Assembly (NCBI GenBank): GCA_020343655.1
Contig: CP070805.1
Coordinates: 1,047,503 to 1,097,591 of the forward strand
Length of the DNA: 50,089 nt
From: Promethearchaeota archaeon
Lineage (GTDB): Archaea; Asgardarchaeota; Lokiarchaeia; Sigyniarchaeales; SOKP01
Direction: 5' to 3'
Shown: positions 23,946-31,998 of the stretch, in pieces
Layout: every line of letters starts with the position of its first letter
Numbering within the stretch: the stretch's first letter is position 1
The notes under the pieces: generated by a model
The model's database searches: none
The model's input: the letters and a program-made list of their open reading frames with translations, nothing else
Told to the model about the DNA's origin: nothing
Program-made: the position numbers and the translations under genes

Positions 23946-25166
23946 TCACAAGAAAATATCGGATATAGGAAAATCATCTTTTTTTTTAGACATAATTTTA
24001 TCTATAGCCTTAATAAAATCTTCATGGGAAATAATTTCAGAATTTTTTCTAATAGCATACATACCTGCTTCTGTGCAAATTCCTTTAATATCTGAACCCG
24101 TTGCACTTTTAGTAAGAGCTATTAATTTTTTTATCTCAAGGTTCTCTTCAAAATGGAGCGTTCTCATATGGACTTTGAAGATTGCTTCTCTTGCTTTTTC
24201 ATTAGGAATAGGGAATTCTACTAATCGATCAAATCGACCTGGTCTTAATAAAGCGGGATCCAAAATATCTGCTCTATTTGTTGCACCAATAAATTTTATG
24301 TCACCTCTTTGATCAAACCCATCTAATTCACTTAATAATTGCATTAATGTTCTATTTACTTCTCTATCACCTGAGGTATCATCTTGCATTCTTATGGCTC
24401 CAATTGCATCTAACTCATCGATAAAAAGAATAGTAGGGGCTTTTTGTCTTGCTAAGCTAAATATTTCTCTAACATATTGAGAACCTTCACCTATGAATTT
24501 TTGAACTAATTCTGTTGCAACAACTTTAATAAATGTTGCATTTGCTTCATGAGCAACAGCTTTAGCTAATAAAGTTTTCCCAGTTCCAGGTAAACCATAA
24601 AAAAGTACGCCTTTAGGAGGTTCTATCCCTATCTTTTTGAATAATTCTGGTTTTTTTAATGGTAATTCTATTATTTCTTTAACTTCTTGAATTTGATTTT
24701 CTAAACCTCCTATATCATTATATGAAATATCAATAGGGCAATCGATTATTTCCATACCCCTCACAAATGGGTTAAAATTGGAGGGTAGTATTTCCATTAC
24801 AGCATAATTTCGTTGATTTAAGGCCACATGTAATCCGGGGACTATCTTTTCTTCTTTCAATCTATTACTAATTCTAACTACAAAACTAGAGTTAGGTGGA
24901 CTTTCTATAATTGCCCGGTCATTAATATCATCTAAAATATCAATGATATATCCTGATAATAAGGGAAGTTCACTTAATCGCTCAATTTCTGAACGCAAAC
25001 TTTTTACTTCAAATTCCACCTTTGTTATGCTATTTCTTAATAAATTTACATCGATTTCATATTCCTTTATTTTTTTCTCAAGATGACGTATATATGAAGT
25101 TACTTTCTCTACATTCTCCGGATCTTTTTTACCATTTTCACTTTCTATAGCGGTCATTTTTATCAT
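23946..25166 (-). CDS. pan: Proteasome-activating nucleotidase (AAA+)
   Basis: N-terminal coiled coil and OB fold; YNDIGGLENQIQE; Walker A GLPGTGKT; pore loop KFIGEG; Walker B FIDE; LRPGRFDR. Confidence 0.93.
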   Translation of the reverse strand: MIKMTAIESENGKKDPENVEKVTSYIRHLEKKIKEYEIDVNLLRNSITKVEFEVKSLRSEIERLSELPLLSGYIIDILDDINDRAIIESPPNSSFVVRISNRLKEEKIVPGLHVALNQRNYAVMEILPSNFNPFVRGMEIIDCPIDISYNDIGGLENQIQEVKEIIELPLKKPELFKKIGIEPPKGVLFYGLPGTGKTLLAKAVAHEANATFIKVVATELVQKFIGEGSQYVREIFSLARQKAPTILFIDELDAIGAIRMQDDTSGDREVNRTLMQLLSELDGFDQRGDIKFIGATNRADILDPALLRPGRFDRLVEFPIPNEKAREAIFKVHMRTLHFEENLEIKKLIALTKSATGSDIKGICTEAGMYAIRKNSEIISHEDFIKAIDKIMSKKKDDFPISDIFL

Positions 25167-25190: not shown

Positions 25191-27125
25191 TTATTTTAAT
25201 CCAATTCTTTTTATTGCTACTTCTAAAATTTTATTTAACATATCCTTATAAGGAATATTAGCAAAATTACACATTTTTGCTAGATGACCATCCCAACACC
25301 AACCAGGATTAGGATTTACTTCTAAAAGCTTGGGATTTCCTTTAGAATCTAAACGCCAATCAAATCGAGCATAATCTTGACATTCTAATCGTTCGAATAA
25401 TTTGAGAGAACAATTTTCAATAACTTCAATTGTATTTTGTGGAAGATTTGCTAAAGTAGATTTAATATTCCAATAAGGAGAATCTGGTAACCATTTTGCT
25501 TCATAACCACAAATTTGTGGTAATTCCGGAGGTAAACTTGAATAATCTTCTTCAATTATTGGAAGTATAATAAAATTATCTGGTGGATTTCCGATTATTC
25601 CAACAGTGAGATCCTTACCAGTAAGAAATTGTTCAACTAAAACTGGCTTATCATAGCCAAATTTTTCACGAATCTCTGAAATTGCAAGTAATAATTCCTC
25701 TCCATTTTTAACTACACTTCTCTGAGTAATCCCAAAACTAGAGTCCCCAAAATTTGGTTTTACAATCGCTGGGAAATATAGAGGTAAATCTATTACTTTT
25801 TCTTCTGGTTTAATGAAAATTGCTTCTGGAACTGGAATCTCTAATTCTTTTGCAATACCTCTTACTAATGATTTATCATAACAAAAGGCTAAACATTGAG
25901 GTCCAGATCCTGTATATGGTATTTCAAGAATATCAAGTAGAGCGGGTATGTGCAATTCCTTCCTAGCATCGTTGTAATAACCTTCATCGCATAAATTAAA
26001 AACAAAATCAATTTTACTATTTAAATTTTGTAAATCTTGAATAAGAGTGTTGTGATTATCTAAATATGAAAAATTATATTCATTAAACTCCTTTAGTGCT
26101 GCTTTTAATTGATTTATTGTAAAGAAATCATCATCATCAAACTTTTGTAAGGGTTTAAGTACATCGGGTTTATTAGGGTCTCCCAAAATAACAATGGTAT
26201 TTCTTTTAACTCGTTTTTCTTTCTCTTTAATCTGTGTCCATTCTTTTTTAACAAAAGCGCTGACAATAATCCTTTTTTCCATCATTCCTAAATCTTGGTT
26301 TCGTTGAGATTCAGGAGTAATCGAACCATGGAAAATAACATCACTAAAACCTACTTTTTCTAATAACTCTGAAATCCCTATTTTTGAGTATAATCTTTCT
26401 GCGTAAAACTGATCCACTAATACTCCTTTATTAACATGGGTTATTACTTCCCTTGATATCAATTTTTGTTTGTCTAAAGATAAAGTTCTTTCTCGACAAA
26501 CGAAAAAATTCTTATCAATCCACTCCCATGAACGGGATTGGAAATTTTCTCTAAGAAATTCTCCATCAGTCATATCTATTAATATTTTTCCCCACGGTTT
26601 TAAAACACGGAAAACTTCTTTTAGTACTAGAAGATCATCATTTATTGATTCAAAATATCCAAAACTATTACCTAAAATCATTACAATGTCAAATGTGTCT
26701 GGATTATATGGTAATTTTCTCGCATCTCCTTCACGAAATTTACATAAAACTCCACACTTTTTTGCATTACTTTTAGCTTTTTGAATTAAATATCTTGAGC
26801 GATCTAATCCAAAGACATTTTTAAAACCTCTATTGGCTAATTCAATAGAATGTCTTCCTTGACCACAACAAAGATCAAGAATCTGATGATCCCGATTAAA
26901 TTGCATAACTTTTGAAAAAAAGTCAATTTCAAATTCTGTGATTCTTTGATCTTCAACTACATCACCATCTGTTTTTAAATAATAAGCATTAAATATCCTT
27001 TTCCACCAATCCTGTTTGACATATTCTTCTAAGTCAAGAACAGGTCCCAAACATATGGATGTAGCTTTTTCTTTATTCTCAAAAATTCTTTTTCTATTAT
27101 TTGAATTGTTTATTTGAGATAACAT
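25191..27125 (-). CDS. Class I SAM methyltransferase fused to D-Ala-D-Ala-ligase-type ATP-grasp domain
   Basis: ILDLCCGQGRH, GDAR, NSFGYF; then FNLCDEG, IPYTGS, DKS, VKP..GDSSFGI, ARFDWR, LEVNPNPG. Confidence 0.9.
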   Translation of the reverse strand: MLSQINNSNNRKRIFENKEKATSICLGPVLDLEEYVKQDWWKRIFNAYYLKTDGDVVEDQRITEFEIDFFSKVMQFNRDHQILDLCCGQGRHSIELANRGFKNVFGLDRSRYLIQKAKSNAKKCGVLCKFREGDARKLPYNPDTFDIVMILGNSFGYFESINDDLLVLKEVFRVLKPWGKILIDMTDGEFLRENFQSRSWEWIDKNFFVCRERTLSLDKQKLISREVITHVNKGVLVDQFYAERLYSKIGISELLEKVGFSDVIFHGSITPESQRNQDLGMMEKRIIVSAFVKKEWTQIKEKEKRVKRNTIVILGDPNKPDVLKPLQKFDDDDFFTINQLKAALKEFNEYNFSYLDNHNTLIQDLQNLNSKIDFVFNLCDEGYYNDARKELHIPALLDILEIPYTGSGPQCLAFCYDKSLVRGIAKELEIPVPEAIFIKPEEKVIDLPLYFPAIVKPNFGDSSFGITQRSVVKNGEELLLAISEIREKFGYDKPVLVEQFLTGKDLTVGIIGNPPDNFIILPIIEEDYSSLPPELPQICGYEAKWLPDSPYWNIKSTLANLPQNTIEVIENCSLKLFERLECQDYARFDWRLDSKGNPKLLEVNPNPGWCWDGHLAKMCNFANIPYKDMLNKILEVAIKRIGLK

Positions 27126-27955
27126 TTTGAATTGATATAAAAAATTTTGATTTTGATAAATAATGAAAAAAATAAAGGCTTTTTAATTCAGATAAAGTTA
27201 TTAATATTTTTGCATACATATTTAAAAGGGATACACGGAGATTAATCTTTCTTAATATTTCAATAGGAATATTAAATCTCATCAATCTTTTAATCTGTTA
27301 CCCTTAATATGTTATTTAGAATTAACTTTACTTCATTCTATTAAAAATTTATATTTGAAATTAATAATAAATAAAATCATTTAAAAACTTTTTCATTATA
27401 TTTCTACTCTCTAAAACAAATCTCAATATGCTGAGATACCTTAAAAATTATACTATATATCTTCAATCTTAGAAGTAGGATAAAATAATGTTTTAAACAG
27501 ATAAATGTTAATTTACTTTAACACTTCCTCTTCTTTTTATAAGTAAATTTGATGATCAAGTTATTATTAATAATAATTTTATCTTTCCTTTTAAAGGTAA
27601 ATATACGGCACCAGAAAAAGTCTCTAAATTAGAATTTATATTAGAAATTAAACATTTCCTTTAATTAATTAATGTTTCTAAAATTAATTTAAATCATAAA
27701 GAATTTTTTAAGAATTAAATATTTCTTTAATAATGGTAAAGAACAAAATTTTACATTTAAAAAAAAAAAACTCTTAGAAATAACTTAAGTGTTCAGAGGT
27801 ATTTTGAAATTTTAAATGCACTGAGCTAATTTACTTTATCTGAATTATTTTTATTTTAAATAAAAAAGTTTTTATATAAAAACTGTTTTTATTCGTACTT
27901 GAAATTCTATTATTAATTCATAATATTAAAAATAATAAAAAAAGAGGTTGGTAAA

Positions 27956-28093
27956 TTGAGTCCTAAACAAAAGAAGGGGAAGCAAAGGTTCGAAGAAGAA
28001 GATGATTGGGATGAGGACGTAGAATATGATGATGATGAAGACTGGGATGAAGATTGGGATGATTATGAAGACTTGAAAGAAGATTTTTTCTAA
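27956..28093 (+). CDS. 45-aa acidic Trp-rich microprotein (not in the ORF track)
   Basis: TTG start with GAGGT SD at 27944-27948: MSPKQKKGKQRFEEEDDWDEDVEYDDDEDWDEDWDDYEDLKEDFF*. A purine-rich coding island in an AT-rich spacer; tandem stop TAA TAG. Confidence 0.8.
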   Translation: MSPKQKKGKQRFEEEDDWDEDVEYDDDEDWDEDWDDYEDLKEDFF

Positions 28094-31544: not shown

Positions 31545-31709
31545 ATGTATTATTGTTGTCCCAATTGTGCTTCAATGAAAATGCCTAGAGTTATAAATTA
31601 CTTCCCTCCAAAGACCGTTAAATGTTTAAATTGTGGATATATAAATTGTGAGACTAAATTTATAAAAGAAAGCCAACAAAAAACCACACCACTTCATTAT
31701 ACCCATTGA
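31545..31709 (+). CDS. Small zinc-ribbon protein, 54 aa (not in the ORF track)
   Basis: MYYCCPNCASMKMPRVINYFPPKTVKCLNCGYINCETKFIKESQQKTTPLHYTH*: CPxC and CxxCG knuckles; AAGGGT upstream. Confidence 0.72.
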   Translation: MYYCCPNCASMKMPRVINYFPPKTVKCLNCGYINCETKFIKESQQKTTPLHYTH

Positions 31710-31821: not shown

Positions 31822-31998
31822 TTATTTTAATGCATAATAACAACGTTTAGGTGAAAAAACTTTTCCTTCTTCACGTAATTCTTTAATGATCTTAGATACT
31901 TCCTTAGATTCAATCCCAGTTTGCTCAGCAATTTCACCAGGGCGTAGTGGTTTATCTGTACTTTTAAATACATCCAAAACTTTTTCTTTAGCTGCCAT
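31822..31998 (-). CDS. Small winged-HTH protein, 58 aa (not in the ORF track)
   Basis: MAAKEKVLDVFKSTDKPLRPGEIAEQTGIESKEVSKIIKELREEGKVFSPKRCYYALK*: HTH pattern with SPKRCYY wing. Confidence 0.88.
   Translation of the reverse strand: MAAKEKVLDVFKSTDKPLRPGEIAEQTGIESKEVSKIIKELREEGKVFSPKRCYYALK

Follow-up and report, generated by a model that had tools for sequence, protein, structure and literature searches.

Small, disordered and acidic cofactors such as Sem1/DSS1, CSNAP and Pup organise proteasome function in eukaryotes and actinobacteria. Sem1/DSS1 belongs to the 26S lid and also to the TREX-2 and BRCA2 complexes. We know of no such cofactor in archaea. In the Pup-PafA-Mpa system of Actinobacteria, Pup has a C-terminal Gly-Gly-Gln/Glu, and the LysW/ArgW carriers have a Cys4 zinc ribbon and a C-terminal Glu. 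An amino-group carrier pathway that combines LysW/ArgW with LysX/ArgX is named in PMC12998189. DSS1 is described in PMC8442969 as a protein with two conserved aromatic/acidic regions and a C-terminal transient helix that binds the PCI subunits RPN3 and RPN7. Here we describe a gene for a very acidic, tryptophan-containing microprotein of 45 residues in a stretch of 50,089 nucleotides (nt) from a Promethearchaeota archaeon (contig CP070805.1, positions 1,047,503 to 1,097,591; hereafter the window). Sequence evidence marks it as a genuine gene of a previously unnamed family, and its conserved neighbour is the gene for an ATP-grasp ligase. The microprotein gene (hereafter the microgene) and the elements that belong to it lie as follows.

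27956..28093, forward strand: microgene, 45 codons with a TTG start, followed by a TAA stop, as found by open reading frame (ORF) analysis
27944..27948, forward strand: Shine-Dalgarno-like GAGGT, 7 nt ahead of the TTG start
27905..27943, forward strand: A/T-rich, TATA-box-like block (TTATAAATAATAA... in relatives), kept upstream of orthologues
28028..28085, forward strand: internal codon repeats, with a 12-nt unit GATGAAGACTGG in 2.4 copies and a 30-nt unit in 1.9 copies

The microprotein contains 14 Asp and 9 Glu (23 of 45 residues), three Trp, three Phe and two Tyr, and has a net charge of about -17.5 and an isoelectric point of 4.05. A Lys-rich head (residues 1-11, with five Lys/Arg) leads into a polyanionic body with Trp18, Trp30 and Trp34 and then into an aromatic C-terminus, Phe44-Phe45 (...EDFF). 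AlphaFold2 with the family alignment predicts an intrinsically disordered chain, with a mean local confidence score (pLDDT) of 63.2, a global score (pTM) of 0.15 and a single short low-confidence helix at residues 35-41. This composition is rare in the genome. Only 2 of 37,819 stop-to-stop frames of at least 25 residues (2.27-Mb genome) contain 14 or more Asp/Glu together with two or more Trp within 25 consecutive residues, which shows that the ORF is more than a product of chance. The second of these frames (C1:357053-357202) is that of a paralogue of the microprotein.

With a first search of 41 relatives, we found intact small frames of 44-51 residues in genomes of the same genus (g1; g12, g15-g18 and g21-g23 below are other genera of the same taxonomic family, f1). 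A profile built from nine orthologues (A1) matched 24 of the 54 g1 genomes. In a family alignment of 22 sequences (A2), Trp18 and Trp34 are invariant and Lys9, Lys10, Asp19, Asp25, Asp31 and Glu32 nearly so; Phe12, Val-Glu-Tyr at 22-24 and the C-terminal aromatic pair are also kept. The relatives end in FF, FY, DY or EY, and a C-terminal aromatic residue is retained in 19 of the 22 close members. Across 78 pairs of 13 orthologues, the median ratio of nonsynonymous to synonymous substitution rates (dN/dS) is 0.24 in frame as compared to 1.17 and 0.85 in the shifted frames, and differences accumulate at third codon positions (1087) rather than at first (589) or second (573) positions. The low in-frame ratio and the fixed aromatic positions therefore indicate that the microgene is under purifying selection. 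That it is a spurious frame is in our estimate highly improbable. A homologue with 69% identity (P0003) is labelled hypothetical protein at NCBI.

The signals around the ORF are conserved as well. Orthologues carry a GAGG/GGAG-type box (GAGGT or GGAG) at the same distance from the start and keep the TATA-like block, which is likely the promoter of the microgene. The 30 alignment columns just before the start show a mean pairwise identity of 0.86, and the G+C content is 0.31 across the ORF versus 0.17-0.21 upstream. The internal 12- and 30-nt repeats, together with a 24-nt unit in 5.8 copies in the microgene of one relative, show that this family changes by repeat expansion. Over the microgene region Rfam gave no match at gathering scores. 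The sole match at E ≤ 1, a C/D-box inside the ORF with 18.9 bits against a cut-off of 44, is due to chance, and we rejected a non-coding reading.

An earlier note on this DNA, made from the letters alone, had reported a 45-residue protein with 23 Asp/Glu, a basic N-terminus, spaced aromatics and several quoted motifs, preceded by a good Shine-Dalgarno sequence and located 2.8 kb from pan. Our analysis bears out this description: all of these features are present in the ORF, the ribosome-binding box is placed as described above, and a PAN-type gene lies at a distance of 2,790 nt. The note had also named a lack of conservation as a ground against its proposal. What we found is orthologues under purifying selection in many g1 genomes.

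In a wider survey, the A2 profile matched 28 of 400 Asgard genomes, a lower bound given that short biased sequences are hard to trace. Twenty-five of these genomes belong to g1 and two to the sister genus g22; the remaining match, inside a 352-residue ORF of another family, is probably due to chance. A wider profile (A3) brought no gain in sensitivity over A2. Searches with the family profile returned 11 matches at E ≤ 0.01 among 5.8 billion clustered proteins and 11 at E ≤ 0.001 among 1.84 billion representatives (exhaustive HMMER), all of them small acidic-Trp proteins of the same kind and none with a Pfam domain. As far as these profiles detect it, the family appears to be fast-evolving and confined to one Asgard taxonomic family.

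The genes next to the microgene on its upstream side, and a conserved block between them, are the following.

25191..27125, reverse strand: gene for a 644-residue methyltransferase/ATP-grasp fusion (hereafter the ligase), divergent from the microgene and characterised by Pfam, NCBIfam and PDB searches
23946..25166, reverse strand: gene for a PAN paralogue of 406 residues with the Pfam domains AAA, Prot_ATP_ID_OB_C and AAA_lid_3, 24 nt downstream of the ligase gene
27286..27405, no strand assigned: conserved block inside the 830-nt spacer from the ligase gene to the microgene

According to Pfam, the ligase consists of a class I S-adenosylmethionine-dependent methyltransferase domain (residues ~40-260) and a D-Ala-D-Ala-ligase-like ATP-grasp domain (~340-640, Dala_Dala_lig_C). 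In the PDB it comes closest to a putative methyltransferase and to D-Ala-D-Ala ligases, and all NCBIfam matches fall far below the cut-offs. In eight of the first ten g1 orthologue loci the microgene faces the ligase gene. The ligase gene occurs in 38 of the 54 g1 genomes and in 24 of the 25 that are positive for the microprotein profile. At 9 of the 12 g1 loci that are ligase-positive and profile-negative, a strongly diverged, more repetitive acidic-Trp micro-ORF occupies the same position. The taxonomic family as a whole has the ligase gene in 79 of 135 genomes and in 9 of 13 genera. We also took a census of acidic-Trp micro-ORFs within 1.6 kb upstream of the ligase gene in stretches of non-g1 genomes:

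g15: micro-ORF upstream of the ligase gene in 6 of 6 stretches, co-directional, about 100 nt upstream
g16: in 3 of 3, co-directional, 430-530 nt upstream
g21: in 1 of 2, co-directional
g22: in 10 of 23, divergent
g23: in 0 of 3
g17: in 0 of 1
g12: in 0 of 1
g18: in 0 of 1

The g16 form is a true relative of the microprotein, because it keeps the signature DW...EDVEYDD...F.Y. The adjacency of microgene and ligase gene thus extends over five genera (g1, g15, g16, g21 and g22) and survives inversion as well as sequence change. This is the strongest functional clue to the microprotein.

A link of this kind could also arise if the act of translating the micro-ORF mattered and the product did not, that is, if the micro-ORF were a leader or sensor acting in cis. 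Acidic nascent chains are known for "intrinsic ribosome destabilization", as described in PMC9718836, PMC12673854 and 10.1101/2021.02.02.429294, and in g15, g16 and g21 the micro-ORF lies on the same strand as the ligase gene, 90-530 nt upstream of it. Here, and throughout g1 and g22, the ORF and the ligase gene however point away from each other, and the gene downstream of the ORF runs towards it, so that nothing is left for the microgene to regulate in cis in the window. Purifying selection on specific aromatic positions and the independent paralogue elsewhere in the genome argue in the same direction, and we judge a cis-acting leader to be very unlikely. The 830-nt spacer between the two genes is, for its part, conserved to an unusual degree. 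Among ten g1 members, the block at 27286..27405 has a mean pairwise identity of 0.85, compared to 0.66-0.74 in its flanks and 0.81 in the microgene ORF. Neither a consensus RNA fold (z about +0.3 to +0.6) nor an Rfam match was found for it. From its sequence, this block is probably shared regulatory DNA, which fits common regulation of the two genes.

The PAN gene follows a related pattern. In g1, where we compared the coordinates of ligase and PAN matches by hand, 24 of the 38 ligase-positive genomes have PAN as the gene that directly follows the ligase gene. In three more it is found within 3 kb upstream of the ligase gene, and in two of these three it stands beside the microgene. PAN also follows the ligase gene in 3 of 3 g16 genomes and in at least 4 of 24 g22 genomes; no PAN follows it in g15 (0/3), g21 (0/2), g23 (0/2), g12, g17 or g18 (0/1 each). 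Microgene and PAN paralogue hence both attach to the ligase gene in overlapping sets of lineages, which makes the ligase the hub of the arrangement. The closeness of pan to the microgene, to which the earlier note had drawn attention, retains some meaning on this basis, albeit an indirect one: the microgene is conserved with the ligase gene, and PAN forms an operon-like pair with the latter. Within g1, the sequence-specific form of the microprotein is mostly accompanied by an adjacent PAN, and the purely repetitive form mostly by the absence of one. We report this pattern as an observation and not as a test, because the genomes are close kin.

Proteasomal ATPases are expected to end in a hydrophobic-Tyr-X (HbYX) motif. 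The ligase-linked PAN ends in ...DIFL (Hb-Phe-X). A second PAN in the same genome (C1:714907-716103, forward strand), 61% identical to the first, ends in ...RLYS (hydrophobic-Tyr-X, HbYX-like). Ten of 11 ligase-linked PAN orthologues have the endings IFL, FFS or FFT (Hb-Phe-X) and one ends in FYV; the ligase-linked PANs of g16 have an Ile-Tyr-X ending. Two PANs with differing C-termini may represent a step towards mixed ATPase rings.

Based on these sequence comparisons, we tentatively favour the reading that the microprotein is a disordered acidic-aromatic docking peptide, be it a cofactor, an adaptor or a substrate, that is tied to the ligase/PAN module; we hold this to be possible, with the balance tilted slightly against it. 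Its Trp, Phe and Tyr side chains would dock into pockets of a partner and its Asp/Glu runs would sit on a basic surface of that partner, which would be either the ligase or the PAN paralogue. We infer the binding, the choice of partner and the link to proteolysis alike. Serving the ligase/PAN pair in this manner, the microprotein would resemble Sem1 or Pup in its mode of action and not by descent. The role of the Lys-rich head may simply be to allow translation of the acidic run, since acidic runs near the N-terminus destabilise ribosomes according to PMC9718836 and PMC12673854.

Several observations weigh against a docking peptide that is bound to this module. One genome (G003) has the microgene and lacks the ligase gene. 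In 13 of the 23 g22 stretches, and in all stretches from g23, g12, g17 and g18, no micro-ORF precedes the ligase gene. PAN is absent from the vicinity of the ligase gene in 11 of the 38 ligase-positive g1 genomes, and six g22 genomes with a micro-ORF show none in the 1.6 kb that follow the ligase gene. In the genome of the window, the microprotein has a paralogue that sits among redox genes and not near the ligase gene. The context in favour is drawn entirely from a single taxonomic family, so that the genomes do not count as independent. The ligase itself carries a net negative charge (median -7 for the Asgard forms, -12.6 for the others); the charges of microgene-linked and other lineages overlap and are not decisive. 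Finally, of the 564 relatives of the ligase we considered the best 80, and about 60 of these come from bacteria (WOR-3, Atribacterota, Aminicenantes, Planctomycetota and others) or from other archaea, with 63-73% identity. The loci of these ~60 homologues have no acidic micro-ORF or PAN within 3 kb, and we found no conserved neighbour of the ligase among them. The ligase must therefore be able to work without the microprotein. It is a widespread, uncharacterised enzyme that probably moves horizontally.

The paralogue is encoded at C1:357068-357202 on the forward strand and is likewise 45 residues long with a Lys-rich head. Its neighbours are genes for DUF255 thioredoxin-like, nitroreductase and peroxiredoxin proteins; the genes inspected around it revealed no theme in common. 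A type that ends in '...WDNDGYFEEE' recurs in other genomes.

The same ligase homologues bear on the idea that the microprotein is a covalent tag or carrier. In this scenario, the ATP-grasp domain would link the microprotein to an amine through an activated carboxylate, either that of its C-terminus or one on a side chain, and the PAN paralogue would recognise the product. Such a scheme would resemble PafA-Pup, RimK-S6 and LysX-LysW. An acidic small protein, an ATP-dependent ligase and a proteasomal ATPase paralogue do form a three-gene neighbourhood in g1 and g16, and the C-terminal aromatic residue is kept in most close members. On the other hand, neither partner accompanies the bacterial ligases with 63-73% identity, which points to a self-contained function, probably on small molecules. 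The ATP-grasp part best matches D-Ala-D-Ala ligases instead of RimK/LysX or PafA-type enzymes, and the microprotein contains neither Gly-Gly-Gln/Glu nor a terminal Glu nor a Cys zinc ribbon. A search for fused or longer forms of the microprotein turned up only a read-through of 114 residues, so that no fused form was found, which is weak evidence. Taken together, a covalent tag or carrier appears improbable to us.

A comparison with the described systems leads to similar differences. What the locus shares with Pup-PafA-Mpa is a set of neighbouring genes for a small, acidic, predicted-disordered protein, an ATP-dependent carboxylate-amine ligase and an AAA ATPase of the proteasomal type. Unlike Pup, the microprotein has no Pfam match at E ≤ 10 and does not end in Gly-Gly-Gln/Glu. 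Unlike PafA, the ligase is an ATP-grasp enzyme fused to a methyltransferase, and it is present in many bacteria without either partner. A PafA/Dop-type ligase (PF03136) gave no match at E ≤ 0.01 in this genome, which is 81.7% complete; the control in Corynebacterium was matched. With LysW/ArgW, the locus has in common that a small acidic Trp-containing protein is encoded beside an ATP-grasp ligase. The microprotein cannot form a zinc ribbon because there is no Cys among its 45 residues, and it ends in Phe-Phe and not in Glu. The neighbouring ligase matches models and structures of D-Ala-D-Ala ligases in place of RimK/LysX, and no lysine or arginine pathway genes are found among the genes of the window. 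The locus also differs from those of graspetides, a type of ribosomally synthesised and post-translationally modified peptide: the precursor of a graspetide would accompany its enzyme, and about 60 loci with an enzyme 63-73% identical to this one contain no acidic-Trp micro-ORF.

A bolder version of the tagging idea, which we consider unlikely, is that microprotein, ligase and Hb-Phe-X PAN work together as an archaeal system, so far undescribed, for tagging proteins or for adapting them to the ATPase. The ligase would either attach the disordered acidic peptide to client proteins or modify it, and the PAN paralogue, on recognising the peptide, would unfold the client. If true, this system would have arisen by convergence as the Asgard counterpart of pupylation, or would anticipate the logic of small disordered proteasome cofactors.

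Acidic-Trp stretches are not restricted to the vicinity of the ligase gene. A degenerate DNA pattern for two acidic-flanked Trp residues matched 86 of 400 Asgard genomes (31 of 85 genera), and the reversed pattern matched none. Among 30 pattern loci, 22 are frames of 37-91 residues in varied contexts, many with a basic head and one (L203) with a zinc ribbon. Six loci are C-terminal tails on PCNA-like frames of ~300 residues; two of the six were checked and both match PCNA_N. The remaining two loci are tails on proteins without an assignment. Outside the Asgard archaea, five genomes were tested, and one of them, from a WOR-3 bacterium, contains an acidic-Trp frame of ~62 residues. The acidic-Trp class is thus wider than the microprotein family and is not Asgard-specific. 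The tailed PCNA-like frames (L192-L195, L198 and L200) belong to another Asgard family (g49), and the PCNA of the present genome (C1:1671088-1671888) has an acidic tail with a terminal Phe. The WOR-3 frame (L219, G400 C1:137 kb) consists of Glu/Asp-Trp repeats; a ligase homologue is encoded in the same genome, not adjacent to it.

This wide occurrence, PCNA tails included, speaks for the reading of the microprotein as a general polyanionic decoy or chaperone that has no relation to its gene neighbours. Such a protein would mimic single-stranded nucleic acid. Abundant basic proteins that bind nucleic acids (histones, RPA-type OB folds or ribosomal proteins, for example) would be shielded by it or competed for. 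The composition and the predicted disorder of the microprotein fit this role, the paralogue is not near a ligase gene, and the genome encodes four histones and a four-OB RPA. In cultured Asgard archaea, histones account for between 3.8 and more than 20% of protein as reported in 10.64898/2026.07.02.735847, where histone chaperones are treated as a later addition. What a decoy leaves unexplained is that this subfamily has kept its place next to the ligase gene in five genera and despite an inversion. Moreover, the kept Phe12, Val-Glu-Tyr 22-24 and C-terminal aromatic pair suggest one defined surface and not bulk charge alone. We therefore regard a general decoy as a serious if rather doubtful alternative to the docking peptide.

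The earlier note had gone further and proposed the microprotein as a candidate Asgard precursor or analogue of Sem1, or a nucleic-acid mimic, with the caution that low complexity makes convergence a real possibility. There is a resemblance to Sem1/DSS1 in composition and motifs: the microprotein is small, very acidic and predicted to be disordered, its conserved Trp and other aromatic residues are flanked by acidic residues, its C-terminal part may have a weak helical tendency, and a proteasomal ATPase gene is near. When residues 12-45 are shuffled 200,000 times, three motifs in the style of that note (Phe-acidic...Asp-Trp, WxxxW-acidic and acidic Phe) turn up in this order in just 0.13% of cases; the regular expressions used were chosen after the sequence had been seen. 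The microprotein is consequently not a typical shuffle of its own composition. WxxxW is not conserved across the family: it is present in only 9 of the 22 close members and 3 of 23 wider ones, and the number of Trp varies from one to five across the family. The DSS1-like details accordingly mark one subclade, not the family as a whole.

Profile searches gave no support for homology to Sem1/DSS1. The Pfam model DSS1_SEM1 (PF05160) matched none of the 22 family members at E ≤ 10, hmmscan of the microprotein against Pfam at the same threshold returned no family at all, and six unrelated Pfam families were each matched by one of the 22 members (E 0.4-10). The six-frame translation of this genome contains no match to PF05160 at E ≤ 10, a setting at which one of 14 control genomes gave a chance match and HMMER filters may drop very weak matches. 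A phmmer search with the sequence and a search with the family profile against all PDB chains (E ≤ 10), a set which we presume to hold DSS1/Sem1 chains, also returned nothing. In the ESM Atlas, the best score was 0.77 to unnamed clusters, with no named cluster matched, and the large protein databases yielded only the microprotein's own family. The narrow range of this family (28 of 400 Asgard genomes) is unlike that of an ancestor of a pan-eukaryotic protein.

Further differences concern the chain and its possible partners. The Lys-rich head has no counterpart mentioned for DSS1 in the available text of PMC8442969. Profiles reveal no similarity. In the microprotein family, Trp residues vary in number and spacing, and as far as it is detected this family is confined to a single Asgard family. 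No lid-type PCI partner was identified in this genome: PCI-model matches occur only in the winged-helix repeats of a UFL1/DDRGK-like protein, and the model matches all 14 control genomes. The conserved neighbour of the microgene is instead the ATP-grasp ligase gene. Taken together, it is highly improbable that the microprotein is a true, proteasome-associated homologue or precursor of eukaryotic Sem1/DSS1, and we do not uphold that part of the earlier proposal. Convergence is a real explanation for the likeness, because acidic-Trp low-complexity frames are widespread and include one in a bacterium; the caution about low complexity has turned out to be the better reading. A Sem1 analogue or acidic mimic stays plausible; the predicted disorder and the invariant Trp in an acidic context fit both. 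Literature searches for a link between Sem1/DSS1 and Asgard archaea, and for Asgard acidic tryptophan microproteins, gave none among the matches listed, which does not prove absence from print.

The protein with the PCI-model matches (C1:1937857-1939800) is a chain of 648 residues with tandem winged-helix repeats that matches the Pfam models PCI, E3_UFM1_ligase and DDRGK. It may be related to UFMylation-type scaffolds.

The interest of the docking-peptide reading lies in the company that the microgene keeps. Conserved beside it are only the gene for an uncharacterised ATP-grasp/methyltransferase enzyme and that for a duplicated PAN with a changed docking motif. This three-gene set defines a concrete experiment, namely whether Asgard archaea have their own small-protein layer on PAN. 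The duplication of PAN with divergent C-termini bears on the origin of the eukaryotic Rpt ring with its six paralogues. Should the link between the genes consist of shared regulation only, the locus would still provide a clean case of a missed microgene family that evolves rapidly through repeats.

Two other small ORFs were observed in the window downstream of the microgene.

31545-31709, forward strand: small ORF of 54 residues with a CxxC...CxxC pattern and a weak TackOD1 match
31822-31998, reverse strand: ORF for a winged-helix protein of 58 residues

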